From an uncultured Bacilli bacterium (GTDB lineage: Bacteria; Bacillota_I; Bacilli_A; RF39; UBA660): 64,000 nucleotides of DNA. The notes beneath the pieces are model-generated. The model had not been told where the DNA came from. It made no database searches and saw only the letters and a list, made by a program, of their open reading frames with translations. This document shows positions 6,252 to 59,038 of this stretch, piece after piece. The position numbers were made by a program, and so were the translations under genes. Location of the stretch: the NCBI GenBank assembly GCA_934085595.1, contig CAKOHK010000001.1, positions 77,429 through 141,428 of the forward strand, in the 5' to 3' direction. The number at the start of each line of letters is the position of its first letter. Positions within the stretch are counted from its first letter, which is position 1.

Positions 6252-6427
6252 ATTCACCTCCATACACAAAAAACGCTTTTTATTTTCAAAAAAACGTTTA
6301 TTTATCAAATACTATTCTAGCAGTCCTATCAAATGTATCATATTTATATTAATATTACAAGATATTTAAAGGAAAAAGTATAAATAATTATTTAATTGAT
6401 TTTATATTTATAAACTATTACTATATT

Positions 6428-6612
6428 TGTGCTAATAATAAATATGCTTCTTTACCATCAGTATATTTTAACTCTAACTTTGTAGTATTCACATTAATAG
6501 TCTCTACTACATCATTACCACTTATAGTTAAGCTAAATATACATAAGTAAGTACTATTGTTAACAAAAATACTGACAATAACCCACTTGTAAATATAAAC
6601 TTTTTATCTTTC
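6428..6612 (-). pseudogene. Frameshifted/truncated N-terminal remnant of the TasA-like variable-protein family
   Basis: The reverse strand reads MMKDKKFIFTSGLLSVFLLTIVLTYVYLA*, then ...SGNDVVETINVNTTKLELKYTDGKE in another frame. A 1-nt deletion relative to the paralogues (YAYFSLVVSGNDV) causes the frameshift. The family's upstream promoter and 5'UTR sequence is retained at 6613-6680. Confidence 0.7.
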
Positions 6613-6675
6613 ATCATATTTTCCTCTATTCTCTATTAGTACTACAATTTAACTAATTATACATTTCAATGTCAA

Positions 6676-9691: not shown

Positions 9692-10497
9692 TTTATATCA
9701 CCCACTTTATATTTAATATCATTTTCTAAGAAATAATAATCTGTATCAAGTATATTAATAAGTTCTTTATCTCTATAATGTTCAAGAGTAACTTTTAACT
9801 CTAAATCACTCATAGTACTTGTATTTATTATTAAATAATCTATATCTAATAATTCATCTATATATTTATTAGCTGAAAATAATTTAAAGTTATTAATTAC
9901 TGTAGAATCTTCTTCCTCTCTTATCATTAATGGATGATGTGATACTTCTTCTTTAAGATTATATTTTTTACTATCACTATCTATATTATAATGAGTTTTA
10001 TAATTTGTTACTAGTTTTCTTTTAGAATATAAAAGAGTATTTCTATTTATTAAAAAATAATATAATTTACTTTTAGTTTTACTTCTTATTTCTTTAATTT
10101 CATCTATAGTTAAATCATTATTTATAACTACATTATTAATACCAATTTCACTTAAAAAATTAATAGCTTTATAATTAGATTCTATATGATTTTCAAATAA
10201 TACAAGTCTTTCTTTATCTATTATAGATGTTAACCCTATATCTTCTACTATAAACATTATATTTTTATTAAACTTTTCATATATTTCTTTAAAACTATTT
10301 ACACTTTTATGAATTAATTTATTCATAATTACATATGTTTTATGTTTAAGAGATATTTCATTTATTTCTTCTATACTATAATATATATCAAATCCACATG
10401 AATAATCTTTTAAAGGTAATATAAAAGCATTAAGTCCATGATCTAAAAATATATTTAAATCTTTTTTATTTGGAATTACTAAATATTTTTCTTGCAT
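9688..10497 (-). CDS. Peptidase U32 family protein (YrrN-like, shorter paralogue)
   Basis: 269 aa, adjacent and overlapping the second U32 gene. The position matches the paired U32 genes downstream of the O-methyltransferase. Confidence 0.6.
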   Translation of the reverse strand: MQEKYLVIPNKKDLNIFLDHGLNAFILPLKDYSCGFDIYYSIEEINEISLKHKTYVIMNKLIHKSVNSFKEIYEKFNKNIMFIVEDIGLTSIIDKERLVLFENHIESNYKAINFLSEIGINNVVINNDLTIDEIKEIRSKTKSKLYYFLINRNTLLYSKRKLVTNYKTHYNIDSDSKKYNLKEEVSHHPLMIREEEDSTVINNFKLFSANKYIDELLDIDYLIINTSTMSDLELKVTLEHYRDKELINILDTDYYFLENDIKYKVGDIK

Positions 10498-11072
10498 ACT
10501 ATTATACCATCTCCTATATCTACATGTTTAACACTATATTCATTTTGATTATCTATATATTCATGAAATGCTTCAAGTTTTCTAACTAGGCCTCTTAAAT
10601 TACGACTTTTAATAGTACTACTTTTACCTACAAATCCATGAAATAACATATTATCCACTATTATAGCACCATTATCGTTTAAATTATTTTTATACTTTTC
10701 AAAAAACTTAATATTTTGACTTTTAGCAGCATCTATTATTATTAAATCATATTTATCTTTAATATCTATCATAAGTGCATCTCCATATATTAAATTAATA
10801 TCAGAAAGATTACTTTTCTTTACATTACTAACAGCTATATTATATCTTTCTATATCTCTTTCAATACTAGTTACTTTAATATCATTATTATTTCTCAAAT
10901 ATATAGAAGAGTACGCTATTGCTGTACCTATTTCTAGTACACTTTTATACTCTTCTTTTTTAATCATATCATCTATATAAAATAATGTATCTTTTATCAT
11001 TATAGGTACATTATTTATTTTAGCATATTCTTCCATTTCACTTATTAAATTAGTATTCAAACCAAAGACCAT
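10479..11072 (-). CDS. SAM-dependent O-methyltransferase (YrrM-like)
   Basis: 197 aa with a class I methyltransferase fold motif (VLEIGTAIAYSSIYL...DIKVTSIERD). Positioned in synteny between mltG and the U32 genes. Confidence 0.75.
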   Translation of the reverse strand: MVFGLNTNLISEMEEYAKINNVPIMIKDTLFYIDDMIKKEEYKSVLEIGTAIAYSSIYLRNNNDIKVTSIERDIERYNIAVSNVKKSNLSDINLIYGDALMIDIKDKYDLIIIDAAKSQNIKFFEKYKNNLNDNGAIIVDNMLFHGFVGKSSTIKSRNLRGLVRKLEAFHEYIDNQNEYSVKHVDIGDGIIVCKKNI

Positions 11073-12117
11073 CCTTCTTTAACTTATTTATAGTACTTAC
11101 ATGTGCACTATCTGTTTTATTAAAATATGTTTTTCCATTTTTATCAGCAACAAAATAATAGTAATCACTCTTACTAGGATTAATACTAGCTTCAATTGAT
11201 TTAACACTCATATTACATATAGGCCCTACTGGCAATTTACCATTCATACATGTACTTCTTGTATTATATTTATTACAATCATTTAGTTCACTCTTATATA
11301 AATCTCTTTCATGTAAATCTATTTTAGCTGCATAGTATGTTGTTACATCACTTCCAAGAGACCATCCTGCATTTAGTCTATTATAAAATACTCCAGCAAC
11401 TCCCTTTCTATCATCAGCATTCCCAGCTTCAAGTTCAACTATAGATGCTAAAGTTAACATTTCATGAATACTATATTTACTACTATCTATTTGAGATTTA
11501 TAAGGATTAAGCTTATCACTCATATTATCAAGTAGTTTAGAAAACACTTCTTCAAGAGTACTATTTTTATAAAACTCATATGTATCAGGATATAAATACC
11601 CCTCAAGTGAATAATATAAATCTTTATTTTTAATATCATTTGTTAAGAACCAATATTTATTTATTAAACTATCTAAATATTTACTATCACTTAATTTGCT
11701 AGTTATCTCTTTTTCAGTAAAATTAAAATTAGACGTAAGTATTCTGATATACTTTCTCATATTTTCCCCAGGCTTAAATGTAAGAGTAACTGTTTCCATA
11801 GTACTACTAGTACCATCTTCTAATTTACTAATTAAATCTTTTAATTTTAAGTTTTTATTAAGATTATATTCACCTGCTTCAAGTCCACTCTTAGGTGTAT
11901 TTAATTTAATATATAGTCTATATGCAAAAGTACTCCTAATTAATCCTTCACTTTTAAGTTTATTATATATCGTACTATAAGTATCATCACTATCTATAGT
12001 AAGCACCACTTCACTACTATTTTTACTTGGCGCAGATATTAAATAAAACCATCCCCCTAACATAATTAATATTATAGATATTAATAATATAATTATTATA
12101 ATTAACTTCTTTTTCAT
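11050..12117 (-). CDS. mltG: Endolytic murein transglycosylase MltG (YceG family)
   Basis: 355 aa with an N-terminal TM helix and a YceG-like domain. Conserved position downstream of ruvX/DUF1292. Confidence 0.8.
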   Translation of the reverse strand: MKKKLIIIIILLISIILIMLGGWFYLISAPSKNSSEVVLTIDSDDTYSTIYNKLKSEGLIRSTFAYRLYIKLNTPKSGLEAGEYNLNKNLKLKDLISKLEDGTSSTMETVTLTFKPGENMRKYIRILTSNFNFTEKEITSKLSDSKYLDSLINKYWFLTNDIKNKDLYYSLEGYLYPDTYEFYKNSTLEEVFSKLLDNMSDKLNPYKSQIDSSKYSIHEMLTLASIVELEAGNADDRKGVAGVFYNRLNAGWSLGSDVTTYYAAKIDLHERDLYKSELNDCNKYNTRSTCMNGKLPVGPICNMSVKSIEASINPSKSDYYYFVADKNGKTYFNKTDSAHVSTINKLKKDGLWFEY

Positions 12118-12127
12118 TCTTTTACTC

Positions 12128-12385
12128 CTATTTTTGTAATGTATTTAATATTTTAGTTATAAATATAATATCATCCTTTTCTTTTATATTTTTAAGTTTA
12201 GTCATATTCCCTTTATCACTTATTTCATATGAACTTATAAAAGCACGTACTTCGCCATCTTCATCTTCTAAATCATCTGTATATATTACATAATTTTTAT
12301 TATTAGCGCTTTCTATATTAAAAAGTATTCTATATTCTTTCTTAGTACCATTCTTATCTTTAAAACTAAGGTAATTTTTTTTCAT
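12128..12385 (-). CDS. DUF1292 family protein (YrzB-like)
   Basis: 85 aa, acidic (YTDDLEDEDGEVRAF). Position conserved between ruvX and mltG. Confidence 0.65.
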   Translation of the reverse strand: MKKNYLSFKDKNGTKKEYRILFNIESANNKNYVIYTDDLEDEDGEVRAFISSYEISDKGNMTKLKNIKEKDDIIFITKILNTLQK

Positions 12386-12794
12386 TATTACTCCTATCTA
12401 AATATGTTTGTAATATTATAGTTGATGCCATTTTATCTATAACTTTTCTTCTTTTCTTTCTTCTAGTATTATTACTTATAAGTATATTTTCAGCTTCTAC
12501 TGTAGATAATCTCTCATCTTGCATAATAACTTCAATATTAAACTCTTTAGTAAGTTTATCTTTAAACTCATATGATATTATACTTCTTTTAGATTCAGTT
12601 CCATTCATATTAAGAGGATTACCTAGTATTATTTTAGTTATATTTTTTTCTTCTATTATTTCTCTAAGTCTATTAAATAGTTCTTCTTCTTTTTCATATC
12701 TTATTACTTCTAAAGGTGAAGATATTATATTACTTTTATCACTAATACTTACGCCTAGTGTTTTACTTCCTAAATCAAGCCCCAAATATGGCAT
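12366..12794 (-). CDS. ruvX: Putative pre-16S rRNA nuclease / Holliday junction resolvase-like YqgF (RuvX)
   Basis: 142 aa with the N-terminal motif MPYLGLDLGSKTLGVSISD typical of YqgF/RuvX. Confidence 0.85.
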   Translation of the reverse strand: MPYLGLDLGSKTLGVSISDKSNIISSPLEVIRYEKEEELFNRLREIIEEKNITKIILGNPLNMNGTESKRSIISYEFKDKLTKEFNIEVIMQDERLSTVEAENILISNNTRRKKRRKVIDKMASTIILQTYLDRSNNEKKLP

Positions 12795-13051
12795 TACTTA
12801 ATAAACTCCTCAAGCATTACTTCTAATATTTCTTCTATTTTAAACTCAAGTATTCTTCTTCTACATTCTTTATAACTTGAAATATACCCAGGATCACCAC
12901 TAACCAAGTATGCAACTATTTGTTTAACTGGATTGTGTCCTCTTTCACTTAGATCCTCACATATACCAAGTAAAGTACTCCTAATATTATTATTAATTAT
13001 AGTTTTAGTATCTACAACAGTAGTTTTATCTCCCATAACATCACCTTCCAT
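12794..13051 (-). CDS. ireB: UPF0297 family protein IreB-like (YrzL)
   Basis: 85 aa (LSERGHNPVKQIVAYLVSGDPGYISS). Conserved ireB-ruvX-DUF1292-mltG order. Confidence 0.7.
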   Translation of the reverse strand: MEGDVMGDKTTVVDTKTIINNNIRSTLLGICEDLSERGHNPVKQIVAYLVSGDPGYISSYKECRRRILEFKIEEILEVMLEEFIK

Positions 13052-13090
13052 TTACTTATTCTATCAAAATATATATACATTTTCAAGCAA

Positions 13091-13118
13091 ACAAAATAAA
13101 AAATGAACATAAGTTCAT
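13091..13118 (-). terminator. Rho-independent terminator of variable-protein gene 1 (family-conserved ATGAAC/GTTCAT hairpin + T tract)
   Basis: Stem ATGAAC(13103-13108) loop ATAA GTTCAT(13113-13118). On the minus strand it is followed by TTTTTTATTTT. The same element follows the paralogues at ~36899-36925 and ~51543-51563. Confidence 0.65.
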
Positions 13119-13121
13119 TAA

Positions 13122-14570
13122 TTATTGAATAACAAAAGGATTATCAGTGCTTCCATCACCTGATATATATTTGACATTAGTATCAAGATATACAGACTGA
13201 CGCAATCCGCCGCTGCGGTTCGTACCAGTGTAGTCCACACCACCGTTGCTGAACACACCCAACGCACCAGCTGAGACATACGAAATAGGCGACACGGCCC
13301 AAAACCAATTACTTGTATCTAATAGCCAGTTAGTACTTTTACATGTTTCACTTCTATAGTCTGTATTATATGGTGAAGAACCACTATCATCATAACCTTT
13401 TTTAGTATCATCATTATAACATGCGCTACTTGCATACATATAATCACTTGGATATATTAATGCTACTTTCCCATCCCATGTTTGTTTATTTCCATTATGT
13501 ACATTAGTACTTCTTTCTTGAGTATATATTTCTTTTGTAGTTCCATATCCAACATTATTTGTCCACACAACACTCCCAAGGTACCATTTTGTACTGCTTA
13601 TTTGACCTTTTGCTTTATCTGTTAAGCCATTGCTTGCATATGTACCTGTTCTATTGTAATACTCTCCTCTATTTAATGTGGTCATTAATGTAGCGGTCGT
13701 CCAGTCATTATAGTTTGTTGCTGAATTAGTCTCGTTCCATACTGCTGTTCCGATGCTTTCCCTTACTATTTTGACTTTATTTTCTCTCGTGTATGTTCCA
13801 TCACCATTAGGTGTTTCTGCTTCAAATACTCCAATTATTCTCCACACTCCAGTTTCCCCATTAAATGTTATATAGTTATTTGGAGTTTTACCCTGGTATC
13901 TATATTCTGTTGTTGCATAGTTTTGATTGCCTGATGCTGTTTGGTCTATTTTTGTTAAACCTAATGTACTATAATTATCTATTAGATAATTTGTAAGTAT
14001 TACTTTCTTACTACTCTCTGCTGCCGCAAGAACTCCATAGAACTTTTTACCTTGGTTATAATTTTGCGCTTTATCTTCATAATTTATAAACTCTATAGTT
14101 ACTGTATAAGTGTGTTTCTCACCCGGCAATATTTTCACATTTTCTTTATATGGATATATTACTTTATTTGTTTCTGCGGTTACTTCTGAAGTTTGTGGGA
14201 TAATCACATTTTCAGTATTATCACATGTTCCACCAGTAGCTCCACTACTTATACATGTACTTCTTATAACAAGTTCCTCTTTTTGAATCTCATTATAAAG
14301 CTTTTGCCATCCTAAAGCATAATATGCTTCTTCATTACCAGTATTTTCTACAGTTATAGTTTTAGTAGTTGTCCATTTTGGCTCAATACTATCTACTTTA
14401 ATTTCTTTTCCATCAGTATAAATTAATTCAATCTTAGTAGTACTTACATTTATAGTTTCTGCTACATCATTACCACTTACTACTAAGCTAAAATATGCAT
14501 AAGTAATTCCGGTAATTATTAAAAACACACTTGTAAGTATTACTGCTAATAATATTTTTTTATCTTTCAT
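13122..14570 (-). CDS. Secreted hypervariable protein, paralogue 1: TasA/camelysin-like N-terminal domain (SipW-type signal peptide) + conserved C-terminal domain ending in a DGR-type variable repeat
   Basis: 482 aa. The N-terminus MKDKKILLAVILTSVFLIITGITYAYFSLVVSG resembles the SipW-cognate AYFSD class. The block ...ITVENTGNEEAYYAL...DKAQNYNQGKKFYGVL parallels camelysin (...FLLQNSGSL...GKDQNIFQGDSLNLEW). The C-terminal ~40 codons (approx 13185-13305) are GC-rich and differ from the paralogues mainly at positions that are Asn codons in the 51567..51797 copy. Confidence 0.8.
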   Translation of the reverse strand: MKDKKILLAVILTSVFLIITGITYAYFSLVVSGNDVAETINVSTTKIELIYTDGKEIKVDSIEPKWTTTKTITVENTGNEEAYYALGWQKLYNEIQKEELVIRSTCISSGATGGTCDNTENVIIPQTSEVTAETNKVIYPYKENVKILPGEKHTYTVTIEFINYEDKAQNYNQGKKFYGVLAAAESSKKVILTNYLIDNYSTLGLTKIDQTASGNQNYATTEYRYQGKTPNNYITFNGETGVWRIIGVFEAETPNGDGTYTRENKVKIVRESIGTAVWNETNSATNYNDWTTATLMTTLNRGEYYNRTGTYASNGLTDKAKGQISSTKWYLGSVVWTNNVGYGTTKEIYTQERSTNVHNGNKQTWDGKVALIYPSDYMYASSACYNDDTKKGYDDSGSSPYNTDYRSETCKSTNWLLDTSNWFWAVSPISYVSAGALGVFSNGGVDYTGTNRSGGLRQSVYLDTNVKYISGDGSTDNPFVIQ

Positions 14571-14596
14571 TCTATGTACTCCTATCTTCTATTAGT

Positions 14597-14625
14597 ATTA
14601 TACTTTAATTAAATCTATATTTCAA
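14597..14625 (-). promoter_or_regulatory. Consensus sigma-A promoter of variable-protein gene 1 (TTGAAA-N17-TATAAT)
   Basis: On the minus strand the -35 TTGAAA lies at 14620-14625, followed by a 17-bp spacer and -10 TATAAT at 14597-14602. The 5'UTR then carries an AGGAG RBS before ATG 14570. The promoter block is conserved upstream of all family members. Confidence 0.6.
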
Positions 14626-14676
14626 TATCAAAATAAAAAGCAAACATAAATGTTCACTTTTCATACATCAATTATA

Positions 14677-16251
14677 TTATAATGATGAAACAGGTTCTTC
14701 TTTAAATCTTAAAGCAATATATCCAACTGTAAATGCCCCTAGTATTGCAAGTAATAAAGTACCATAATCTTCTACACCAGTTTTAGCATTATATTCTAGT
14801 TTAACTTCATTATGAGGATTAACATCAATAATCTTAGCACTTACTATTACTACTTGATCTAGTTTAGATTCTGAATAGAACAATCTTCCTCTATTACTAT
14901 CAGTATTATATACTTTACCTTTACCATCTAAATCAATATTAATTTGAGTAGTAGATTTATATTTATTATCTATTCTTATATAGAACTCTGAATATCCTTC
15001 ATTATCACTATTATTAATATTTGTTACATTATATACTTTCTTACCATCTACTTCACTATATGGAAGTTCTTTTAAATCTTTATCCACTAAAGTAACACCT
15101 TCAGAAGGATTTGTAACTTTAGCAGTTATGCTATTCCAATCAGTAACTAACATTTTAGATTTAACTTTATATGGTCCATAATATTCAGCATCACTTTCAC
15201 TTTTATATGCTTCTTTACTTGGAAGTTCAAGTACTAATTCATTTTTATATGTGTCATCTACATATTTATCTCTATCTTTAATTAAGAATTGATATAATTT
15301 ATTAAGTTCACTATTACCAACTAATGTATCACCTAAATATAATTTATTTTCCCCATCAAGTTCATAATATTCCCCTATTACTTTCCATACTGCATATTGT
15401 ACAGTAGCATACACAGCATTACTTACATTTTCTTCACTATTATTTAAAGATGAAAGTAATGTTTCATAAGATACTCCAGCATATTCTAAACTATCTTTTA
15501 AACTTAGTGATGGATAACTATGCTCTATAATATATAAAGCTTTTCTATATCCTATACTATCACTCATTTCACTTGCTGTATAATGGTTAATCATAAAATC
15601 ACTTTTCTTAAATGTTACACTTACTTTACCATCAACTATTTCTTTTCCAAGACTAGATGCTATATCATTAGCATTTAATAATTTAACATCTCTACTATTA
15701 GCTTTTGGTATAAAACCTATACTAGTCATACTAGAAGTAATCTCTTCTCCATTATTAAATGCAGTAATAGTGCTTTCACTAGGATCACTTACCATATCAA
15801 CATAATATCCAGTAACATCATCTATACCATCAAGTAAATTACAACCACTTTTATTATTACATTCTTTTAATATTTGAAAAGCAGTCATTATTTTAATTAA
15901 ATCTTTACCACTCATAGTAGTAGCAATATATTGATATTCTGGATATTTTTTATTTCCATCCATACAATAAGCACTAAAATAATTACTTTCATTTCCACTA
16001 TAAATAATTTTCATATCACTTTTACCAGTAATATACTTATCATTTACATTAGTAGTAAACTTAACATAACTATAGTCAAAAGAATCTCCTACTGTAAAGT
16101 CTCTCTTATCCCCTACATTAAATCCACTTTCATTTATTTTAGGAATTATTCTAGCACTATTAGCACTTTGACTTGCTGCTATAACATCAGTTTTTAACAT
16201 AAAACCTAAAACAAAAGTAAATAAAACAAACAATAAAAATCTTTTTTTCAT
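14677..16251 (-). CDS. Secreted surface protein, putative thioester-domain (TQXA-like) adhesin with C-terminal sorting-signal-like anchor
   Basis: 524 aa with a signal peptide (MKKRFLLFVLFTFVLGFMLKTDVIAAS). A Cys-containing motif SAYCMDGNKKYPE is present, together with a Gln motif ATVQYAVWKV resembling TQXA(V)W. The C-terminus YNAKTG-VEDYGTLLLAILGAFTVGYIAL-RFKEE looks like an LPXTG-type tripartite signal with a non-canonical NAKTG motif. Confidence 0.4.
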   Translation of the reverse strand: MKKRFLLFVLFTFVLGFMLKTDVIAASQSANSARIIPKINESGFNVGDKRDFTVGDSFDYSYVKFTTNVNDKYITGKSDMKIIYSGNESNYFSAYCMDGNKKYPEYQYIATTMSGKDLIKIMTAFQILKECNNKSGCNLLDGIDDVTGYYVDMVSDPSESTITAFNNGEEITSSMTSIGFIPKANSRDVKLLNANDIASSLGKEIVDGKVSVTFKKSDFMINHYTASEMSDSIGYRKALYIIEHSYPSLSLKDSLEYAGVSYETLLSSLNNSEENVSNAVYATVQYAVWKVIGEYYELDGENKLYLGDTLVGNSELNKLYQFLIKDRDKYVDDTYKNELVLELPSKEAYKSESDAEYYGPYKVKSKMLVTDWNSITAKVTNPSEGVTLVDKDLKELPYSEVDGKKVYNVTNINNSDNEGYSEFYIRIDNKYKSTTQINIDLDGKGKVYNTDSNRGRLFYSESKLDQVVIVSAKIIDVNPHNEVKLEYNAKTGVEDYGTLLLAILGAFTVGYIALRFKEEPVSSL

Positions 16252-24815: not shown

Positions 24816-25736
24816 ATGCATAAAAAATATATACTACTAACTTTTATATTAATAATATTTTTACTTAATATAAACATAGTACTTTCATCAGTAACTGAAG
24901 CTTCAGTTATATTTTATACCAAGATATTTGTATCAGTATTTCCATTTATAATATTATCAAACATATTAATATATTTTAATTATCACTTATTCTTAAATAA
25001 AATATTTAAAAAACCACTAAATAAACTATTTAATATATCTTCTTCCTCTATAATATTTATACTAAGTATTTTATCAAGTATGCCATCAAACTCTATATAT
25101 ACTAAAAACTTACTTGATAACAAATTAATAAATACTACTGAAGCAAATAAAATATTAACTTTTACATACTTTCCATCTATAAGTTTCATGATCGGTACGG
25201 TGGGTTATAAAATGTTTAATAATATTAAAATAGGTATAATTTTATTATTATCTAACTACATATATAATATTTTAATAGGTATATATTTAAGAAAAGATAA
25301 AATTAACTTCACTTTAGAAAATGAAAACTCTATCAATAAAACATCATTTTTTGATATGTTAACAAATACCATATTAAATGCATTTAAAACATGCGCTATT
25401 ATATTAGGTAACTTAATAATATTTATAATTATAATAAATATATTAAATAAATATTTAAATATAAATAATACTTTATTATCTATACTATCAGGACTACTTG
25501 AATTAACAACTGGAAGTGATATGTTATCTTTATTAGATATTAATATAAACTTAAAAATAGCTCTTACTTCTCTAATAATTAACTTTAGTGGTCTATCTAT
25601 ATTATTTCAATCTAAAAGTATATTAAATGATTATAATATAAATATAAAAAGAATATTAATTATTAAACTAATATTCTCTATAATAATATCTATTTTATTA
25701 TATATATTCTTATATTATAGTGCTTTATATTCATAA
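24816..25736 (+). CDS. Polytopic integral membrane protein (possibly YlbJ-like sporulation membrane protein)
   Basis: 306 aa with multiple hydrophobic helices. It is divergent from the YlbL-like gene, as ylbJ is in Bacillus. The match is weak. Confidence 0.45.
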   Translation: MHKKYILLTFILIIFLLNINIVLSSVTEASVIFYTKIFVSVFPFIILSNILIYFNYHLFLNKIFKKPLNKLFNISSSSIIFILSILSSMPSNSIYTKNLLDNKLINTTEANKILTFTYFPSISFMIGTVGYKMFNNIKIGIILLLSNYIYNILIGIYLRKDKINFTLENENSINKTSFFDMLTNTILNAFKTCAIILGNLIIFIIIINILNKYLNINNTLLSILSGLLELTTGSDMLSLLDININLKIALTSLIINFSGLSILFQSKSILNDYNINIKRILIIKLIFSIIISILLYIFLYYSALYS

Positions 25737-26326
25737 TTTTTATAATTTGAATATAACTTTACATCATAATTTCTATCACTAGCAATTATAGTTATAATAA
25801 ATACTTTTTCTTTATTACTTATATCTATAGTAGTATTAGTAATAGAAGCAAAATGATAATTATATACATTTATAAGTTTACTAGCACTATCATTTCCTTC
25901 ATAATTAGAAGTTGATTTAATAGTTTTAATAAACATATTTTTATCATTCTTACTATCTCTATATTCAATAGTACTATAAGTTTCAATACTAAATCCATTA
26001 CTTCCTCTATTAGTATAATTTTTTTTATCCTTTTTTATTCTAAGAGCAAGACTTCTCTCTTCCCCATCCATTAGTTTAATATTGCACATATATCTATTAT
26101 CATTTTCTTTATTACAAGAAACTTCTCTTATTCCATCATGTGCTATAAAATCATCATTTATAATATTACTAGTAAGACTACCAAATACTTTAATATCAGT
26201 ATCATTATCACTATCATTATATACTTCTCTAAGTCTTATTAAACTAGACATCATAAATACAAGTATAACACTAACAAGAGTAATACTAACAAGTAACTCT
26301 ATTAAAGTAAATCCTTTCTTATTCAT
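25715..26326 (-). CDS. Prepilin-type N-terminal cleavage/methylation domain protein (type IV pilin/pseudopilin-like)
   Basis: The N-terminus MNKKGFTLIELLVSITLVSVIL matches the class III signal (G-F-T-L-I-E, with Glu at +5). Confidence 0.7.
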   Translation of the reverse strand: MNKKGFTLIELLVSITLVSVILVFMMSSLIRLREVYNDSDNDTDIKVFGSLTSNIINDDFIAHDGIREVSCNKENDNRYMCNIKLMDGEERSLALRIKKDKKNYTNRGSNGFSIETYSTIEYRDSKNDKNMFIKTIKSTSNYEGNDSASKLINVYNYHFASITNTTIDISNKEKVFIITIIASDRNYDVKLYSNYKNYEYKAL

Positions 26327-26330
26327 ATAT

Positions 26331-26813
26331 TTACTCCATTTCTATAGAAGCATAATAATATTTCCCGTTTCTATAAAACACCCCTACTGCATAAGTCTTA
26401 TTATTATCTTTCTCTTTATCACTTATATATTCTAAATAATTAATAGTTCCACTTTGATATCTACTATAATTGTTTTTAACTTCATTACTTAGATTTTTAA
26501 TAACACCAGCATATAACAAATCATACTTTTTCATAACACTATCACATGAACTTATATATTTATTTATATCACTACTACTACAGTTATCTCTTCTAGTAAA
26601 GAAATTACTTCCATAAGTTATATAATTATCTTTAAGTGTAGTACCAATATTCATAAAAGTATAAAGAGCATATATATCACTTGAATTATCATAATATGTA
26701 TTAATATCTACTCTTTTCATAATAATAGTATAATTAACAAGTAACATACTAGTAGCTAACGCAACCACTGTAAGAACAGCAATAGTTTCTAAAAACACAA
26801 ATCCTTTTTTCAT
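26331..26813 (-). CDS. Pseudopilin-like protein
   Basis: The N-terminus MKKGFVFLETIAVLTVVAL is prepilin-like (G-F-V-F-L-E). 160 aa. Confidence 0.6.
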   Translation of the reverse strand: MKKGFVFLETIAVLTVVALATSMLLVNYTIIMKRVDINTYYDNSSDIYALYTFMNIGTTLKDNYITYGSNFFTRRDNCSSSDINKYISSCDSVMKKYDLLYAGVIKNLSNEVKNNYSRYQSGTINYLEYISDKEKDNNKTYAVGVFYRNGKYYYASIEME

Positions 26814-27712
26814 AGTTTCACCACATATGGACTATAATATTTTCCATTTCCTCTTTTAACTCTAACACTGCTTTTGAAAGATATAACGCCCTTTAAATAA
26901 GCATTAGAAGTATAACTTGTACTAACTAAAGTATTATTATATACATATATATTATTACCACTTCTTGACATAGTCCATATATTATTAGGAATATAAGAAT
27001 TAGATAAACCACTAAGTACTACTTCACTAGCACTAACAAGCCCCATAGGATATTTAAGTTTACCGTTTCCATTATAACTAGAAACACTATAAGAATAATT
27101 AGAACACTTTAACGATATACTAGAATTATACACATCAGCACAATAAACACTATCTTCTAAATAATCTTTATACTTTAATATATTATTTTCATAAAAACTA
27201 TCTAAATTATTTTTAACATTACTACTTTCATATAAATTATTACTAGTAGAATAACTAACTAAACTTCCATTATCAACACTACATGCTTCATTACTATATT
27301 TTCCATAATATATTGCCCTAACTCCAGAAGAAGTATTACTTTTAATAATTCTAAAACACATATTTCCAAGAGCCACAAAATTATTAACATCTTTTCCCCT
27401 ATAATAATATATCTTATTACTATCTAAAGTTCTATATAAAAGCCCTTCTCCATTAGTACTACTACTATTTTTAGTAAAATCTATAGAAGAATCACTAACC
27501 GGATTATTATCATTAATTATTCTGCATAAAAGAAAATCACTATCACTATCGCACATACCATAATTAAGTTTAATTTCGCTCTCTACTTTTTCATTTATAG
27601 TATTTAAATAATTAAGTTTCCTAGTATAATTAAGTACTATTATTACATTAATAAATACAAAAACTATAAAAAATGAATAAACAAGTGTAGTTGAAACAAA
27701 TCCCTTTTTCAT
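26810..27712 (-). CDS. Pseudopilin-like protein (minor pilin, lacks Glu+5)
   Basis: N-terminus MKKGFVSTTLVYSFFIVFVF. 300 aa, Ser/Tyr/Asn-rich. First gene of a three-gene overlapping operon. Confidence 0.5.
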   Translation of the reverse strand: MKKGFVSTTLVYSFFIVFVFINVIIVLNYTRKLNYLNTINEKVESEIKLNYGMCDSDSDFLLCRIINDNNPVSDSSIDFTKNSSSTNGEGLLYRTLDSNKIYYYRGKDVNNFVALGNMCFRIIKSNTSSGVRAIYYGKYSNEACSVDNGSLVSYSTSNNLYESSNVKNNLDSFYENNILKYKDYLEDSVYCADVYNSSISLKCSNYSYSVSSYNGNGKLKYPMGLVSASEVVLSGLSNSYIPNNIWTMSRSGNNIYVYNNTLVSTSYTSNAYLKGVISFKSSVRVKRGNGKYYSPYVVKL

Positions 27713-27831: not shown

Positions 27832-28503
27832 ATGAAAAAGAAATTAAATAGACTTTTATCTAGTATTTTATGTACTCTTAGCATTATATCTTTAAGTTCA
27901 TGTGCTAAAGATACGAATTGTGATATTGATATTAAGCATTATCATATTTATAAAAATGAAGAAACGGGTTATAGTAAGTTTTCTAAAGGCGAAAAAGAAT
28001 ATATACATACTTTAGAAGGTACTTTATATAAAACTGATGCTTATGCTTACATAGATGATTATACTAATATGCTTTACAAAAATAATTTATCTTATGTATT
28101 TGATAATAAAGATTATTTAAGAACTAAAATGACTCGTATAGATGAAAGAGAAGAATATAAACTTGTATCTAAATATGGCTATCATTATTCTTATGAGTAT
28201 GATTATAATCCAGCGACTGAAGAATATGAATTCTTTTATGGTAATCATTACGGATATTATGAAGAGTATGATTGGGTAGAAATATCTCCATATGAATACA
28301 CTTATAATAAAGTAAGAGATATACACTACACTTATAAGTTTTATAAATATGAAGATGGTAAATTAATATCAAAAACATTTGATAAATTAGAAGATGTACC
28401 AAGTGAATATAATTTATTTAATTCTTCTTCCTTAATTGTAAAAGAAATATCTGATGATTATTATTTAACACCTGAAAATACAAAAACAATAAAAAATAAT
28501 TAA
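27832..28503 (+). CDS. Tyr-rich lipoprotein
   Basis: The signal peptide has a lipobox (LSIISLSSC-AKD). The mature part is very Tyr/Glu-rich (YEYDYNPATEEYEFFYGNHYGYYEEYDW). Confidence 0.65.
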   Translation: MKKKLNRLLSSILCTLSIISLSSCAKDTNCDIDIKHYHIYKNEETGYSKFSKGEKEYIHTLEGTLYKTDAYAYIDDYTNMLYKNNLSYVFDNKDYLRTKMTRIDEREEYKLVSKYGYHYSYEYDYNPATEEYEFFYGNHYGYYEEYDWVEISPYEYTYNKVRDIHYTYKFYKYEDGKLISKTFDKLEDVPSEYNLFNSSSLIVKEISDDYYLTPENTKTIKNN

Positions 28504-28554: not shown

Positions 28555-28631
28555 GGCGATGTAGCTCAGTTGGCTAGAGCACACGGTTCATACCCGTGGT
28601 GTCGAGGGTTCGAATCCCCCCGTCGCTACCA
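28555..28631 (+). tRNA. tRNA-Met (CAT), elongator-type
   Basis: 77 nt GGCGATGTAGCTCAGTTGGCTAGAGCACACGGTTCATACCCGTGGTGTCGAGGGTTCGAATCCCCCCGTCGCTACCA. The cloverleaf has a CAU anticodon and an encoded CCA. The acceptor and anticodon arms resemble Bacillus elongator tRNA-Met. An upstream promoter TTGAAA-N17-TATATT lies at 28511-28539. Confidence 0.85.
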
Positions 28632-28698: not shown

Positions 28699-28848
28699 TT
28701 CAAAATAAAAACTATAACTATAAAGTCATCTATAGCACTTCTATTATAACTTCAATATCACCACCCTTCACTTAACAAATCATATATCATAAATTGACAA
28801 ACATATCAAAAAATGATAATATAATTACCAATTTGGAGAAACACATTA

Positions 28849-29876
28849 TGGAAGAAAGAAATAAAGAAAAATTAATAGAGCTAAATAATATAGCAGACAT
28901 GATAAGACTAAGTTATCTTAAATTAGAAAAACTAGAAATGGAAGGAAAACAAGATACTAAAGCTTATCATGAAACTATTGAATATTTAAAATCTCAAATA
29001 GAAATGGAAGAAAATACTTATAAAAGATTTTGTTCTACTTATGAAGAAGCTCGCTCTCTAGCAGCAATAGTTTGTAAAAGATTATATAATGATGATGATA
29101 TAGAAAACAAAAACTCTATTACGTTAGAAAATGGTAGTATTTTTAATGGTAAACTAGAAGATTCAAATAACAAAAGAATATTAGATAAATTAATGGACTA
29201 TATGGATAAAGATACAAAAGGAACTTTAAAAGCACTTACCAATGCTGATAATATGGTAGCATTATTATCAATAATAAATAGTTCACTAGAAACAGAAATA
29301 GCAAGAACATCTGCAATATTAAAATCAATCAAATATGATATAACTATTCTAGTTCTTAAATATTTAGATGAATATATAAATGACGATAAATATAAAAATA
29401 TAAGAGAAACTCTTATAAGAATTAAATACTATATAATTTATACAAAAACAATTATGGAATATAGTTTAATTAATAATTCTTTTGAACTTCCAAAAGATAT
29501 AATCTTAACATCTAAAATGGTTCATGAATATAATACACCAGAAAATATAGGCGAATATGAAGATAATACAGATACAGTTATAACTAACAATACAATAGTT
29601 ATAATGAATGATATTGTTGCTTTAAACGATTCAGAAATAACCGATCCAAATAATATATGTGCTATCATGAAAATATGTTTCTTTAAAGCATATATGACAT
29701 TAATAAGTAGTTCTACAAGTGAAATATTAAAAGAAGCATACTTACAATATACAAGTTCAGAAGGATATAAAAAGAACAATAAAAACTATAAAATAACAGA
29801 AGAAACAATATTATCTATCATAAACGAAACAGAAAAATATAAAAAATGTATAAGTAGATTCACATTAAAAAGATAA
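28849..29876 (+). CDS. Hypothetical cytoplasmic protein
   Basis: The ORF track gives 28794..29876. The start is preferred at ATG 28849 (MEERNKEK...), which has a GGAG RBS. The protein is alpha-helical with no known motifs. Confidence 0.45.
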
Positions 29877-29902: not shown

Positions 29903-31636
29903 TTAATTTATAACAAATGGATTACTCTTAGTTCCATCACCACTTACATAGTTTACCTTAGTATTAAGATACACAGACTGACGCACGCTACCATAGTTAA
30001 TTGAGCTGGTGTAATCCACATTACCATAAACGTTCACAAACATTGCATTACCCGGATGGTTAGAATTTAGTGACACAACCCAATACCACGCTCCAATAAA
30101 TAACCAATTAGTATTAATGCATTTTTCATTTCTATAATCTTTGCTTGAATCAGAAACATTATTAGCTTTCATTGTATTGTCATTATAGCATGCACTACTT
30201 GCATACATATAATCACTCGAATATATAAGTGCTACTTTCCCATCCCATGTTTGTTTTTTGCCACTATGTACACTTGTGCTTCTTTCTTGAGCGTACATTT
30301 CTTTTGTATTACCATAACCAACATCAGAAACCCACGTTCCATTTCCTAAATACCATTTTGTCATGCTTATTTGACTTTTTGCAGTACTTGTTAAGCCATT
30401 ATTTGCATATGTACCCACTTTATTGTAGTAATCTCCATTATTTAACAACTTCATCAGTGTTGCGGTTGTCCAGTCATTATACGATTTTGTAGAGTTCCAT
30501 TCAATCAATCCAATTCTATCTCTTACTATCTTTACCTTATATTCTTTTGTATATCCACTTCCATTTGGTGTTTCTACTTCAAAAACTCCAATAATTCTCC
30601 ACACTCCAGTTTCATCATTGAATGTTATATAGTTGTTTGGAGTTTTACCTTGATATCTATATTCTGTTGTAGCATAATTCTGATTACCTGTCGCCGTTTG
30701 TGATATTTTAGTTAGACCAAATAGTGTATAATTATCTTTTAAACAATTAGCTAATGTTTTACCTGTGCATATGCTTTCAAGAGTACTTTTCCAGTGTGCA
30801 TACAAAGTATGATTAGTATTAGTTGTAACTTTAGTATTTGCATTAACTTTTACTCCACCATTTAAAGAAGTGTACCAGCCCATAAAATCATATCCGCTCT
30901 TAACTGGAGTACATAACTCACCATAGTTTAATCCATATGATACGTCTTTAGAACTACAGCCTGATCCTCCATTATTATCATATGTTAGCTTAACTTTATT
31001 TTCTATAAAATTGATAGTACATTTTTCATCTTTAACAATATTCTTAAAGGTAATCTTATCATTATTAACTATTATATTTGTGCAAGTACTACTATAGTAT
31101 TTATATCCAGTTTTAGGAGTAACTGTAAATATAGCATCTCCTCCATCATAAACAAAAGCATATGCTGGACTTACAGTTCCTTTATTTTCATCACTACTTG
31201 ATACTTCAAGTAAATTATAAGGCACAAACTTCCAAGGATCTTTATAAGTACCTCTTCCTATAATTTTAACTTCTTTCTTAATATACTCTGTTACTCTAAT
31301 ATTACTATCAGTACTTGATTCATTATTTATCACTTTTCCATCAATAGTAAAATAAGGCAATGATGTAACTAAATATGAAGAATCATCTGTTTTAGATGAG
31401 TTCACTTCATATATATTTATAAGTCCACCAGTATTAAATCCATTTACATATGATATAGTTTTATTGTTATATCCAAATGGTATTTTAGATGTATTTATTA
31501 GATATGCTATATTTTTTCTATTATTTTTTATATAGTTATTACTTATATCTTTACCTTCATCAAAACTATAAGCGTTAATATTACTAATAAACATAAATAT
31601 ACATAAAAAACTAATTATTTTAAATACTCGTTTCAT
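29903..31636 (-). CDS. Secreted hypervariable protein, paralogue with alternative N-terminal region and the family's C-terminal domain + variable repeat
   Basis: 577 aa with a different signal peptide (MKRVFKIISFLCIFMFISNINAYSF) and a ~290-aa N-terminal region. From ...LFGLTKISQTATGNQNYATTEYRYQGKTPNNYITFN onward it is homologous to the family's C-terminal domain. The C-terminus ...GNAMFVNVYGNVDYTSSINYGSVRQSVYLNTKVNYVSGDGTKSNPFVIN aligns to the TR-like copy. Confidence 0.75.
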   Translation of the reverse strand: MKRVFKIISFLCIFMFISNINAYSFDEGKDISNNYIKNNRKNIAYLINTSKIPFGYNNKTISYVNGFNTGGLINIYEVNSSKTDDSSYLVTSLPYFTIDGKVINNESSTDSNIRVTEYIKKEVKIIGRGTYKDPWKFVPYNLLEVSSSDENKGTVSPAYAFVYDGGDAIFTVTPKTGYKYYSSTCTNIIVNNDKITFKNIVKDEKCTINFIENKVKLTYDNNGGSGCSSKDVSYGLNYGELCTPVKSGYDFMGWYTSLNGGVKVNANTKVTTNTNHTLYAHWKSTLESICTGKTLANCLKDNYTLFGLTKISQTATGNQNYATTEYRYQGKTPNNYITFNDETGVWRIIGVFEVETPNGSGYTKEYKVKIVRDRIGLIEWNSTKSYNDWTTATLMKLLNNGDYYNKVGTYANNGLTSTAKSQISMTKWYLGNGTWVSDVGYGNTKEMYAQERSTSVHSGKKQTWDGKVALIYSSDYMYASSACYNDNTMKANNVSDSSKDYRNEKCINTNWLFIGAWYWVVSLNSNHPGNAMFVNVYGNVDYTSSINYGSVRQSVYLNTKVNYVSGDGTKSNPFVIN

Positions 31637-36929: not shown

Positions 36930-38351
36930 TTATTCTATAACAAACAGATTATTACTACTACCATCACCTGACATGTATTTGACACTAGTATCAAGATATA
37001 CAGACTGACGCACGCCGCCGGAGCTGAAACTCGTATCGCCCGTATTCACCTTACCGGAATTGTTCACATACCTCGCACCGTCCGAACTGCTAGAACTAGG
37101 CGACACGGCCCAAAACCAATTATTCGTATCTAATAACCAGTTAGTACTTTTACAAATTGAATCATCATAGTTAAAACCTATTGTTCCATTATTGTAGCAA
37201 CTGCTACTCGCATACATATAATCACTTGGATATATTAGTGCTACTTTTCCATCCCATGTTTGTTTATTTCCACTATATACATTAGTACTTTTTTCTTCTT
37301 GATATGTTCCTTGACAATCCTTACTACTACTTCCATAAGTAACATTTCCTAAGTACCATTTTGTACTACTTATCTGATTTTTTGCATTTTCTGTTAAACC
37401 GTTGCTTGCATATGTACCTGTTCTATTGTAATACTCCCCACTATTTAATGTGGTCATTAATGTAGCGGTCGTCCAGTCATTATAGTTTGTAGCTGAATTA
37501 GTTGCATTCCATGCTGCTTTTCCTATTGTATCTCTTACTATTTTAACTTTATTTTCTTTTATATATGTTCCGTCACTTTGTGGTGTTTCCACTTCGAATA
37601 CTCCAATTATTCTCCATACTCCTGTTTCACCATTGAACGTTATATAGTTGTTTGGTGTTTTACCTTGATACCTATATTCACTTGCTGCATAATTTTGATT
37701 ACCTGTTGCTGTTTGGTCAATTTTTGTTAAACCTAATGTACTATAATTATCTATTAAGTAGTTTGCAAAAGTTTGAGTTTGTTCTTTTCCACTACTTTCT
37801 GCTGCTCCAAGAACTCCATAGAATCTTTTGCCTTGATTATAATTTTGTGCTTTATCTTCATAATTTATGAACTCAATAGTTACAGTATAAGTGTGTTTCT
37901 CACCTGGTAATATTAATACATTTTCTTTATACGGATATAATACTTTATTTGCTGCAGCATTTACTTCTGATGTTTGAGGGATAGCTACATTGTCTGTACT
38001 TGAGCAAGTCCCTCCTGTTGCTCCACTACTTGTACATGTACTTCTTATAACAAGTTCTTCTTTTTGAATCTCATTATATAGTTTTTGCCATCCCAAGGCA
38101 TAATATGCTTCTTCATTACCGGTATTTTCTACTGTTATAGTTTTAGTAGTTGACCATTTAGGCTCAATATTATCTACTTTAATTTCATTTCCATCAGTAT
38201 AGATTAATTCTATTTTAGTAGTACTTACATTAATAGTCTCTGCTACATCATTACCACTTACCACTAAACTAAAGTATGCATAAGTAATTCCTGTAATAAT
38301 CAAAAATACACCTGTAAGTAATACTGCTAATAATATTCTTTTATCTTTCAT
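36930..38351 (-). CDS. Secreted hypervariable protein, paralogue 3 (TasA-like N-domain + C-terminal domain with variable repeat)
   Basis: 473 aa, ~85% identical to paralogue 1 outside the C-terminal variable block (~36993-37113). That block is GC-rich: ...SPSSSSSDGARYVNNSGKVNTGDTSFSSGGVRQSVYL. The gene has its own promoter TTGACT-N17-TATAAT (38379-38407) and an AGGAG RBS. Confidence 0.8.
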   Translation of the reverse strand: MKDKRILLAVLLTGVFLIITGITYAYFSLVVSGNDVAETINVSTTKIELIYTDGNEIKVDNIEPKWSTTKTITVENTGNEEAYYALGWQKLYNEIQKEELVIRSTCTSSGATGGTCSSTDNVAIPQTSEVNAAANKVLYPYKENVLILPGEKHTYTVTIEFINYEDKAQNYNQGKRFYGVLGAAESSGKEQTQTFANYLIDNYSTLGLTKIDQTATGNQNYAASEYRYQGKTPNNYITFNGETGVWRIIGVFEVETPQSDGTYIKENKVKIVRDTIGKAAWNATNSATNYNDWTTATLMTTLNSGEYYNRTGTYASNGLTENAKNQISSTKWYLGNVTYGSSSKDCQGTYQEEKSTNVYSGNKQTWDGKVALIYPSDYMYASSSCYNNGTIGFNYDDSICKSTNWLLDTNNWFWAVSPSSSSSDGARYVNNSGKVNTGDTSFSSGGVRQSVYLDTSVKYMSGDGSSNNLFVIE

Positions 38352-49747: not shown

Positions 49748-51463
49748 TTACTCAATCACAAAAGGATTACCACTAGTTCCATCACCGCTTACATATTTTA
49801 TATTAGGACTAAGATATATCGAAGGACATAAACCAGCTGTAGAACTTTTAATTACAAGACCATTTATCAAATTACCGACATTATTTACGTATAATGCACC
49901 AAGTTTATCCACGGAAACAGGTGTTACACTCCAGTATCGTAATCCACTAAATAACCAATTAGTACTTGTGCATGTAGAATCAGAATAACCATTTCCCAAA
50001 ACTCCACTATTATAACATGTACTACTTGCATACAAATAATCGCTTGGATACATTAATGCTACTTTTCCATCCCATATTTGACTATTACCATTATGTACAC
50101 TTGTGCTTCTTTCTTGTACATATAAATCTTTTGCACTTTTATTGTTATCTCCATTTCCTAGATACCATTTTGTTGTGCTTATTTGGCTTTTTGCTTCAAT
50201 AGTTAATCCATTACTTAAATACGTACCGGTTCTGTTATAATAATCACCAGAATTTAATGTTGTCATTAACGTTGATGTAGTCCAATCGTTGTCGCCTTCA
50301 CTACCATTTTCATTCCAAGCTATATTTGTTTCAATACTATCTCTAATTATCTTTACTTTATTTTCTTTTGTATATATTCCATTCCCGTTAGGTGTTTCAA
50401 CTTCAAATACGCCTATTATTCTCCAAACATTATCTTCCCCATTAAATGTTATATAGTTATTTGGAGTTTTACCTTGATATCTATAGTCTACTGTTTCATA
50501 ATTTTGATTACCAGTTAGGGCTTGATTGATTTTAATTACATTTAAACTTTCATAATTATCAATTATATAATCTGACAATTTATAATCTAAATTAATATTG
50601 GATATCTTTTGATTATCAACAATAACATCAAGCCGTATATTTTTACTTATCGGTTTAACACTATAAGATTCATCAGATTTAATTATCTCGTTTTCTCCAT
50701 TAAAAAGTTTTATTTGAGTAGTAGTAATATCGTCATTATTGTCAACTGTTAAAGTATGATTACCAAGTTCTACATCATTAAATATTACTGTACCATTTTC
50801 ATCTGTTGTTCCAGTCATTGGTGTTGAATGTAATGTTACCTTGCTATTTGGAATAACAGTTCCATCAGTGTTTTTAACATTAAGTGTAAGATTATATGTA
50901 TTATATGCTTCAACAAGTCCTAAAACTCCGTAGAACTTTTTACCTTGATTATAGTTTTGTGCTTTATCATCATAATTTATAAACTCTATAGTTACCATAT
51001 AGGTATGAGTTTCTCCTGGTAATATTAGTGCTGCTTCTTTATATGGATACAATATCTTGCCAGATTCTCTGGTTACCTCTGCCGTTTGCGGAATAACAAC
51101 ATTATCTGTGTTATCACACGTACCACCTGTAACTCCACTACTTGTGCATGTACTTCTGATTACTAGTTCTTCTTTTTGAATCTCATTATATAATTTTTGC
51201 CATCCTAAAGCATAATATGCTTCTTCATTACCAGTATTTTCTACAGTAATTGTTTTAGTAGTAGTCCAGTTAGGCTCAATACTATCTACTTTAATTTCAT
51301 TTCCATCAGTATAAATTAATTCAAGTTTAGTAGTACTTACATTAATAGTTTCTGCTACATCATTACCACTTACTACTAAGCTAAAATATGCATAAGTAAT
51401 TCCAGTAATTATTAAAAACACACTTGTAAGTATTACTGCTAATAATATTCTTTTATCTTTCAT
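49748..51463 (-). CDS. Secreted hypervariable protein, paralogue 4 (TasA-like N-domain + inserted CnaB/CarboxypepD_reg-like domain + C-terminal domain with variable repeat)
   Basis: 571 aa. An extra ~115-aa segment NVKNTDGTVIPNSKVTLHSTPMTGTTDENGTVIFNDVELGNHTLTV shows the TDENG...G.YTL pattern of Cna-B/carboxypeptidase-regulatory-like domains. The variable block is ~49811-49935 (…VDKLGALYVNNVGNLINGLVIKSSTAGLCPSIYL). The promoter TTGAAA-N17-TATACT lies at 51490-51518. Confidence 0.8.
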   Translation of the reverse strand: MKDKRILLAVILTSVFLIITGITYAYFSLVVSGNDVAETINVSTTKLELIYTDGNEIKVDSIEPNWTTTKTITVENTGNEEAYYALGWQKLYNEIQKEELVIRSTCTSSGVTGGTCDNTDNVVIPQTAEVTRESGKILYPYKEAALILPGETHTYMVTIEFINYDDKAQNYNQGKKFYGVLGLVEAYNTYNLTLNVKNTDGTVIPNSKVTLHSTPMTGTTDENGTVIFNDVELGNHTLTVDNNDDITTTQIKLFNGENEIIKSDESYSVKPISKNIRLDVIVDNQKISNINLDYKLSDYIIDNYESLNVIKINQALTGNQNYETVDYRYQGKTPNNYITFNGEDNVWRIIGVFEVETPNGNGIYTKENKVKIIRDSIETNIAWNENGSEGDNDWTTSTLMTTLNSGDYYNRTGTYLSNGLTIEAKSQISTTKWYLGNGDNNKSAKDLYVQERSTSVHNGNSQIWDGKVALMYPSDYLYASSTCYNSGVLGNGYSDSTCTSTNWLFSGLRYWSVTPVSVDKLGALYVNNVGNLINGLVIKSSTAGLCPSIYLSPNIKYVSGDGTSGNPFVIE

Positions 51464-51829: not shown

Positions 51830-51859
51830 GTGCCCGCACAGTTCCACCGTGCAGGGCAC
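51830..51859. promoter_or_regulatory. GC-rich nested hairpin between target 5 stop and TR (no U-tract)
   Basis: The sequence is GTGCCC-GCAC-AGTTCCACC-GTGC-A-GGGCAC. It is about 68% GC in a ~25% GC genome. It lies 17 bp downstream of the paralogue-5 stop (51876) and 33 bp upstream of the TR-like copy. Confidence 0.6.
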
Positions 51860-58791: not shown

Positions 58792-58825
58792 AATAAATAA
58801 AAAAAGAAGTACAACACTTCATTAT

Positions 58826-58915: not shown

Positions 58916-59038
58916 ATCTTTCATATTATATATGCTTCTATTTTCTATTTAAATTATATTTTAGTTATAATCACATTTCAAGGTGCAAATAAAAACTTGT
59001 AAAACACATTTATCATATATCTTACAAGTAATATTATT

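Follow-up and report, generated by a model that had tools for sequence, protein, structure and literature searches.

We examined a 64-kb window (the whole stretch of DNA analysed: positions 77,429 to 141,428 of contig CAKOHK010000001.1, from an uncultured Bacilli bacterium; about 25% G+C, with nearly all genes on the minus strand) and identified a surface protein gene, here referred to as g13, which was apparently diversified by a diversity-generating retroelement (DGR). Its product would consist of three parts, a TasA/camelysin-type signal, a beta-sandwich carrier of about 160 aa and an enlarged C-type-lectin-like head of about 290 aa, in which about 30 residues ahead of the conserved GGLRQSVYLD…NPFVI tail form the putative ligand-binding variable region. 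This variable repeat (VR) has a template repeat (TR) in the same window. The parts of g13 and the TR are as follows.

13122 to 14570, minus strand: g13, a single open reading frame (ORF) with an ATG start, 482 aa; signal, TasA-like N-module and C-type-lectin-like C-domain with a C-terminal VR
14496 to 14570, minus strand: signal peptide or N-terminal hydrophobic helix, residues 1-25, ending in ITGITYA and followed by YFS; TasA-type, with a putative SipW-class cleavage region
14010 to 14495, minus strand: N-module, residues 26-187; predicted beta-sandwich, divergent Peptidase_M73/TasA-camelysin, with a conserved C106-C116 loop and a QNYNQGK motif
13125 to 14009, minus strand: C-domain, residues 188-482; enlarged C-type-lectin-like, resembling the N-terminal domain (NTD) of an IgA protease (IgAse)
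13200 to 13304, minus strand: VR of g13, residues about 423-457, hypervariable at 429-454
51645 to 51752, minus strand: TR, rich in Asn codons, SPSSNNSNNAMNVNNNGNVNNNNTNNSSGGVR; 35 adenines, nearly all in AAY codons

The DGR wrote the VR through a cDNA that was copied from the AAY-rich TR, received random bases opposite the template adenines and replaced the resident VR; both the spectrum of mismatches and the complete cassettes of homologues in related genomes show this origin. This uncultured low-GC gut Bacilli lineage has at least seven or eight such secreted surface proteins, paralogous to one another, g13 among them. Repeat and ORF searches of the window gave the paralogues and decayed remnants below, to which members beyond its right edge are added.

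36930 to 38351, minus strand: g36, 473 aa; N-domain the same as that of g13; VR at 37008-37115
51876 to 53393, minus strand: g51, 505 aa; N-domain the same as that of g13; directly upstream of the TR; VR at 51954-52061, with an A-specific core
49748 to 51463, minus strand: g49, 571 aa; additional CarboxypepD_reg-like insert; VR-equivalent region without adenine bias
29903 to 31636, minus strand: g29, 577 aa; g13-type C-domain on a Listeria-Bacteroides repeat N-terminus; adenine bias not significant
6400 to 6620, minus strand: decayed family remnant, a frameshifted N-terminal fragment retaining its promoter
58822 to 58930, minus strand: decayed family remnant, a mini-ORF with the signal end AYFSLVVSGND joined straight to the C-terminal tail YVSGDGSASNPFVIK
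L134:8325-9872, beyond the right edge: family member of 515 aa, its C-domain on another N-terminus
L134:10001-11737, beyond the right edge: family member of 578 aa, 93-100% identical over all 12 homologues recovered

The N-domains of the paralogues showed 80-89% identity, with the first 50 mature residues close to invariant, and a further family member occupies a different locus in a related strain. Compared with the TR, the VR of g13, in which one codon is deleted, was changed at 22 of 34 A sites and at 8 of 71 non-A sites (73% of the mismatches at A; Fisher p = 4e-8), which bears out the earlier note, where the protein had been labelled DGR-variable from the letters of the DNA. The VR of g51 was changed at 21/35 A and 8/74 non-A sites (p 2e-7), every non-A change being at the 3′ edge, and that of g36 at 15/34 A and 9/74 non-A sites (p 4e-4); the adenine bias was also present in a strain variant. 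No significant bias was found in the corresponding region of g29 (14/33 A, 21/72 non-A) or in that of g49 (19/35 A, 33/69 non-A). As g49 lacks the bias, it is outside the target set of this TR, and since the 578-aa member is nearly the same in all of its homologues, it is not hypervariable.

Among 72 family members, column entropy reached its maximum at residues 429-454 (2.4-3.6 bits at variable positions), while G443, V439, A436 and V445 were comparatively conserved (0.3-1.7 bits). The variable positions of the family are those templated by AAY codons. The TR itself is the core of a 76-codon pseudo-ORF immediately downstream of g51. A search with the TR peptide showed that the TRs of canonical DUF6273-type DGRs have nearly the same Asn pattern, one of them sitting between bAvd and a reverse transcriptase (RT). 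Other searches gave little: the exact TR 27-mer had no match in the genome contigs, a protein-pattern scan of the same contigs returned only distant N-module relatives, and a 16-nt VR/TR flank pattern, too short for the purpose, gave 120 loci in metagenome contigs, mostly random and high in GC, of which only L068 was relevant. Two scans of viral contigs with VR/TR flank patterns gave only chance matches in unrelated phages.

As judged from their sequences, the pairing of a TasA-like module with a lectin-like domain recurs in complete cassettes from several gut and rumen Bacilli metagenome-assembled genomes. The cassette from a goat caecum (L011) is complete, with a target, a 113-nt TR/VR pair, bAvd and a 506-aa RT; its pair (15/33 A and 0/80 non-A sites changed) is cleaner than that of g13. 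In L144 and L145, the target has 532 aa, is collinear with g13 (BLASTP E 1e-23; PF12389 24.3 bits) and is followed by TR, bAvd and RT, and the same order follows a partial target in L143, at which the N-terminus is missing at the contig edge. In RNAalifold predictions for the canonical loci (L011:1608-1850, L143:881-1124 and L144:6712-6953), the motif 5′ of the TR pairs with the spacer motif GGAAACAAGTTYAAYCCTTCT and the 3′ end of the TR pairs with TAAGGAAA, so the canonical TR is predicted to be enclosed in a long-range helix, on the basis of three sequences with a few compensatory changes. The RT-homologue contexts inspected (L143 and L144) belong to relatives with different TRs, and no RT was tied to the genome of the window. 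The RTs of this Bacilli clade (L011, L143 and P0144-P0162) are about 500 aa long and end in a MutS_I-like domain (PF01624), while L142 has separate MutS_I ORFs alongside bAvd and RT.

TasA, the CalY camelysins and BsaA (Peptidase_M73) are SipW-dependent biofilm fibre proteins. Peptidase_M73 (PF12389; profile length 196, gathering threshold 22.5 bits) was the sole Pfam match of g13, with 18.7 bits (E 0.0017) for the whole protein and 22.5 bits for the isolated N-domain; paralogues and relatives scored 24-45 bits. The signal of g13 covers profile positions 4-27, and the AlphaFold2 model (mean pLDDT, the predicted local distance difference test, of 87) has a helix at residues 4-22; cleavage by a SipW-class signal peptidase probably occurs after TYA, to judge from the signal end. 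The BsaA model of NCBIfam (TIGR04090, SipW-dependent) matched g13 with E 2.7e-4 and 20.7 bits, far below its cut-off of 60; the BsaA and TasA models were likewise far below threshold on relatives, and no other NCBIfam model touched the module. With hhalign, residues 17-81 of g13 aligned to residues 19-79 of Bacillus subtilis TasA (probability 28%), an alignment that takes in the TasA signal end and its AFND motif.

These direct matches of g13 alone would be weak, and the assignment of the N-module to the TasA family relies on a bridge homologue. The N-terminus of a 965-aa protein adjoining a family member in L140 aligns with the N-module over 180 columns (hhalign 99.9%, E 2e-37) and matches PF12389 over profile positions 5-180 of 196 (38 bits). 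By this transitive comparison, the homology to the PF12389 family extends over the whole domain, beyond the signal peptide. The TasA/camelysin N-domain proposed in the earlier note thus stands at the level of the Peptidase_M73 match and the bridge homologue, whereas the match of g13 itself is partial and at or below threshold. g13 is like TasA, CalY and BsaA in the signal end and the motif that follows (TYA then YFS in g13, TWA then AFND in TasA), in the first strands (…GT-L-L… and N-I/L-K/E-PG…TK…N-G), in the C-terminal QNYNQG-type motif, in the predicted beta-sandwich and in Pfam matches at family level. Unlike them, its module is shorter (about 160 versus about 210 aa) and followed by a large passenger domain, and neither sipW nor tapA is adjacent.

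The module is widespread. In an exhaustive profile search it heads, as the N-terminus, 2074 clusters at 50% identity, 698 of them at E <= 1e-10, and 61 of the 84 distant relatives scanned that carry it (73%) match PF12389. The C-terminal passengers of these 84 include DUF285 (20), CarboxypepD_reg (18), BspA-type leucine-rich repeats (LRR; 14), Flg_new (8), FNIP (8), DUF6273 (4), GDSL lipase, GH18 and others. Sequence comparison therefore points to a divergent TasA-family domain that serves as a general N-terminal carrier of many passenger domains in the lineage.

The domain boundary of g13 (N-domain of about 185-190 aa, C-domain of about 290 aa) matches both the AlphaFold2 model and the limit to which paralogues and distant relatives can be aligned, in agreement with the split proposed earlier. 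The strings quoted in the earlier note were recovered in g13, namely ITYAYFSLVVSG (residues 22-33), TVENTGNEEAYYAL (73-86), DKAQNYNQGKKFYGVL (166-181), WRIIGVFE, WDGKVALIYPSDYMYASSACY and GDGSTDNPFVI; its GGVRQSVYLD belongs to g36, g13 having GGLRQSVYLD. The C-domain had no Pfam, NCBIfam or PDB sequence match, the search with the family profile included, and no sequence-level match to IgAse; Pfam gave no match to FGE-sulfatase or DUF1566 either. DUF6273 (PF19789) did not match g13 and gave E 0.014 in 1 of 14 family members, and hhalign of the C-domain with three DUF6273 domains was not significant (probability 0.5%). The likeness of the g13 family to DUF6273 is confined to the TR/VR peptide pattern.

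In the structure search, g13 matched the IgA protease of Thomasclavelia ramosa (PDB 9QA6), and a model of the N-domain alone did not, so the match falls in residues 190-482. The 290-aa N-terminal domain of IgAse has a C-type-lectin-like core "double the size of a typical CTLD", and its closest relative is the Lcl domain (PMC12237041). The modelled structure thus supports a C-type-lectin (CLec) fold for the C-domain, as the earlier note had guessed, with a more precise relative than expected. Unlike the g13 C-domain, the IgAse domain is N-terminal to a metzincin protease, dispensable for activity and without known hypervariability.

The VR of g13 is carried at the C-terminus of this lectin-like domain, like those of CLec-fold DGR targets (Bordetella phage Mtd, Treponema TvpA and DUF6273-type "tentaclins"). 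Other shared features are a TR rich in AAY codons, adenine-specific substitutions and a conserved G/C-rich 3′ boundary followed by a conserved tail; in its peptide pattern, the TR is almost identical to DUF6273-type TRs. DUF6273 is reported to be a C-lec-like DGR target in which the VR is a surface beta-hairpin (PMC10743442). On the other hand, the g13 C-domain is about twice the minimal CLec, it is carried by a TasA-family module where those targets have a phage tail, Ig or lipoprotein scaffold, and no RT or Avd lies beside the TR in the window.

We searched for the missing components by a YxDD motif scan, Pfam on unannotated ORFs and tblastn with queries taken from homologous cassettes (three RTs and two Avds). 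The search covered about 85 kb of scaffold and 10 kb on either side of other family loci. No DGR-clade RT was detected in the 64-kb window, and tblastn found no bAvd in it; neither was found in the further 20 kb or so of scaffold or within 10 kb of the other family loci. The 360-aa plus-strand ORF at 28794-29876, which contains "YNDD", was rejected as an RT as it had no Pfam match. The surroundings of the TR are as follows.

51830 to 51859, minus strand: GC-rich hairpin between the g51 stop codon and the TR
51772 to 51785, minus strand: DGR-type motif TTTAATAGGGTTAG, immediately 5′ of the TR and conserved ahead of the TR in L011, L143 and L144 as well
51545 to 51644, minus strand: 3′ flank of the TR, a paralogue 3′ coding end (…RTSVYLDTNINYISGDGTTDNPFVIQ and stop codon) with a terminator at 51548-51563, at the canonical position of spacer, avd and RT

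The terminator in the 3′ flank is the sequence that follows g13 and g36. The spacer motif GGAAACAAGTTYAAYCCTTCT is absent from the window, and of the RNA element only the 5′ motif is kept. The TR thus retains a DGR-type 5′ flank and then enters the 3′ end of a paralogue with its terminator, and the cassette is apparently truncated. It is most likely that spacer, avd and RT were lost through recombination of the TR with the VR of a downstream paralogue; after this, the VRs of g13, g36 and g51 would have been frozen, and present-day variation would spread by recombination among paralogues and strains. At the g36 locus of other strains, TR-like hybrid ORFs (L068:7790-8011 and L141:167-397) join the 5′ part of the TR to the VR and 3′ end of g36; they sit after a gene with a g51-type 3′ end, which indicates that the g51-TR unit and the g36 locus have undergone gene conversion with each other.

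We favour, with some reserve, a truncated cassette in which the VRs of g13, g36 and g51 are frozen records of past diversification. The non-A mismatches (about 11% in the VRs of the window, versus 0% in L011) fit frozen VRs. Several observations weigh against this account. The TR has kept its 35 adenines and is intact, and the GC-rich flanks of VR and TR are identical in a genome of 25% GC, a state compatible with recent homing and equally with recent loss. Elsewhere in the genome there may be an RT with a TR of its own; trans action is documented, and so are remote DGR targets at distances above 100 kb from the RT (Wu et al. 2018). The identity of g13 across samples is also uninformative on DGR activity and was rejected as proof of inactivity, because the g13-bearing contigs are mostly clonal (100% identical over 12-21 kb) or the allele was imported: in L004, compared with 9863-15385 of the window, the flanking housekeeping genes differ by 1.1-3.5%, whereas g13 and both intergenic regions have 0 mismatches in 1625 nt, which indicates that strains have recently exchanged the whole allele by recombination. 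We allow a smaller though appreciable probability that the system is alive. In that case, g13, g36, g51 and other paralogues would be diversified in trans by an RT and Avd encoded at another chromosomal site, perhaps together with a second, complete TR-spacer unit, and the TR at 51.7 kb would be either a working template or a by-product. Some third-codon-position differences in the VRs would be explained by a master TR that differs slightly from the one in the window, and the inspected stretches of scaffold and family loci would leave room for one. Against such an active system speak the missing RT and Avd near the TR and near every inspected family locus, the TR lacking the spacer that pairs with the 5′ motif in homologous cassettes, the non-A mismatches and a TR-ORF search for the family which gave only gene-flanked or hybrid copies. 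Multi-target DGRs (Treponema denticola and lineage-4 DGRs; Wu et al. 2018) similarly serve several paralogous targets over tens of kb from one common TR; their TR stays by the RT, unlike the only TR of the window, flanked by target genes. That no retroelement was ever involved, with ordinary mutation, positive selection and gene conversion diversifying the family and the Asn-rich fragment being a decayed 3′ pseudogene, is very improbable and already disfavoured. The paralogues do recombine freely, as hybrids, remnants and allele exchange indicate, g29 and g49 lack the bias, and no RT was found; nevertheless, the adenine bias is strong in three paralogues and a strain variant (odds ratio 12-14, p ~1e-7; p 4e-4 for g36), the fragment bears the 5′ motif of canonical TRs and the Asn pattern of TRs beside bAvd and RT, and homologous targets occupy complete cassettes.

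The assignment of the domains has its own contrary points. The PF12389 match on g13 spans only about profile positions 4-80 of 196, the whole protein and the isolated N-domain both giving 4-75. A PDB sequence search with the N-domain profile returned no TasA at E <= 10 (TasA constructs in PDB lack the signal peptide), and a fold search with the N-module model, a generic beta-sandwich, did not retrieve TasA. As to the head, we infer that the 9QA6 match falls on the IgAse N-terminal domain from the description of that domain as a double-size CTLD related to Lcl (PMC12237041), and not from a reading of the alignment. It is possible, although we consider it unlikely, that the helix of g13 is an uncleaved signal anchor and its beta-sandwich a generic membrane-proximal stalk which has only a signal-peptide-like motif in common with TasA; this estimate concerns the N-module only and is not to be summed with those on the state of the DGR. 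The bridge homologue covering PF12389 5-180, the match in 73% of distant relatives and BsaA and TasA being the only NCBIfam models to touch the module argue against a mere stalk, as do the -3/-1 residues (T-Y-A), which fit signal-peptidase cleavage, and residues 25-43, unstructured in both models (pLDDT < 50), as a free donor strand would be. A simple regular expression for the signal peptidase I motif matched nowhere in the window, nor in the majority of the related low-GC loci retrieved. The N-module may polymerise as TasA does, or it may simply keep the lectin at a distance from the cell. More speculative, and rather improbable in our judgement, is the idea of a single surface fibre into which the paralogues polymerise together through donor-strand exchange of their TasA-like modules. 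Each subunit would bear a different DGR-written lectin head, and the fibre would be combinatorial, hypervariable and adhesive; the TasA fold would then be a universal polymerising carrier of more than 2000 kinds of passengers in uncultured gut Bacilli.

Around g13, an AGGAG ribosome-binding site precedes the gene, and its upstream region recurs ahead of paralogues (repeat families D16 and D18). Two further elements were detected.

14597 to 14625, minus strand: promoter-like site of g13, TTGAAA-17-TATAAT, near-consensus (11/12 match)
13103 to 13118, minus strand: terminator hairpin of g13, ATGAAC-TTAT-GTTCAT with a T-run; the same sequence lies 3′ of g36 and of the TR fragment

At least 10 metagenome contigs from the human gut carry the identical g13 protein, each with a thioester-domain (TED) protein gene on one side and ireB/ruvX on the other. 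In the window, the gene immediately upstream (14677-16251, minus strand) encodes a 524-aa protein that has a TED adhesin domain (PF08341, 27 bits) and ends in a hydrophobic anchor; thus, two adhesin-type genes are adjacent. A 515-aa gene beside a P0107-type paralogue was rejected as a homologue of this TED protein, as it showed no homology and resembles another C-domain paralogue.

Elsewhere in the window, a small-gene cluster at 25715-27712 (minus strand) includes one gene whose product bears a type IV pilin N-methylation motif (PF07963, E 4e-7), as well as two without a family match. BsaA of Clostridium perfringens, whose TIGR04090 model gave the best NCBIfam match to the N-module, is reported to be secreted with type-IV-pilus-associated genes (PMC11580942). 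Plus-strand genes are rare, and GC skew is locally reversed at those of 28794-29876 (360 aa, rich in Lys, Glu and Ile) and 27832-28503 (223 aa, lipoprotein-like); neither protein had a family match. They adjoin a tRNA at 28555-28628, and an Rfam scan of the whole window gave one tRNA and nothing else.

The known DGR targets are tips with a lectin or Ig fold, mounted on phage tails, pili or lipoproteins. A VR on a CLec fold, multiple or remote targets and modular target proteins are already established (PMC10743442; Wu et al. 2018). What is new here is that the carrier of a DGR target is a TasA/camelysin-family module, that the head is an enlarged, IgAse-NTD-like CTLD without a family model and that the TR is an orphan; our literature search found no paper pairing DGRs with TasA, camelysin or Peptidase_M73. 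Of the variable lectin on a TasA-like fibre put forward in the earlier note, the domains and the DGR link hold up; the fibre is not yet established, and the module is a general carrier, not one peculiar to DGRs.

The locus shows an apparent route of DGR death, in which recombination between TR and VR leaves an orphan TR and frozen VRs that later spread by recombination. The C-domain of g13 gives a second, hypervariable context for the double-size C-type-lectin domain of the T. ramosa IgA protease. The protein also suggests, as a concrete candidate, a way in which uncultured gut bacteria of low GC and poor in cell wall may display variable adhesins, on a TasA-type module that is a very common N-terminal carrier in the lineage (more than 2000 clusters at 50% identity, with LRR, DUF285, Flg_new, DUF6273 and enzyme passengers). 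If this module proves to polymerise, the significance would rise sharply, since these bacteria would then have fibres decorated with functional heads.
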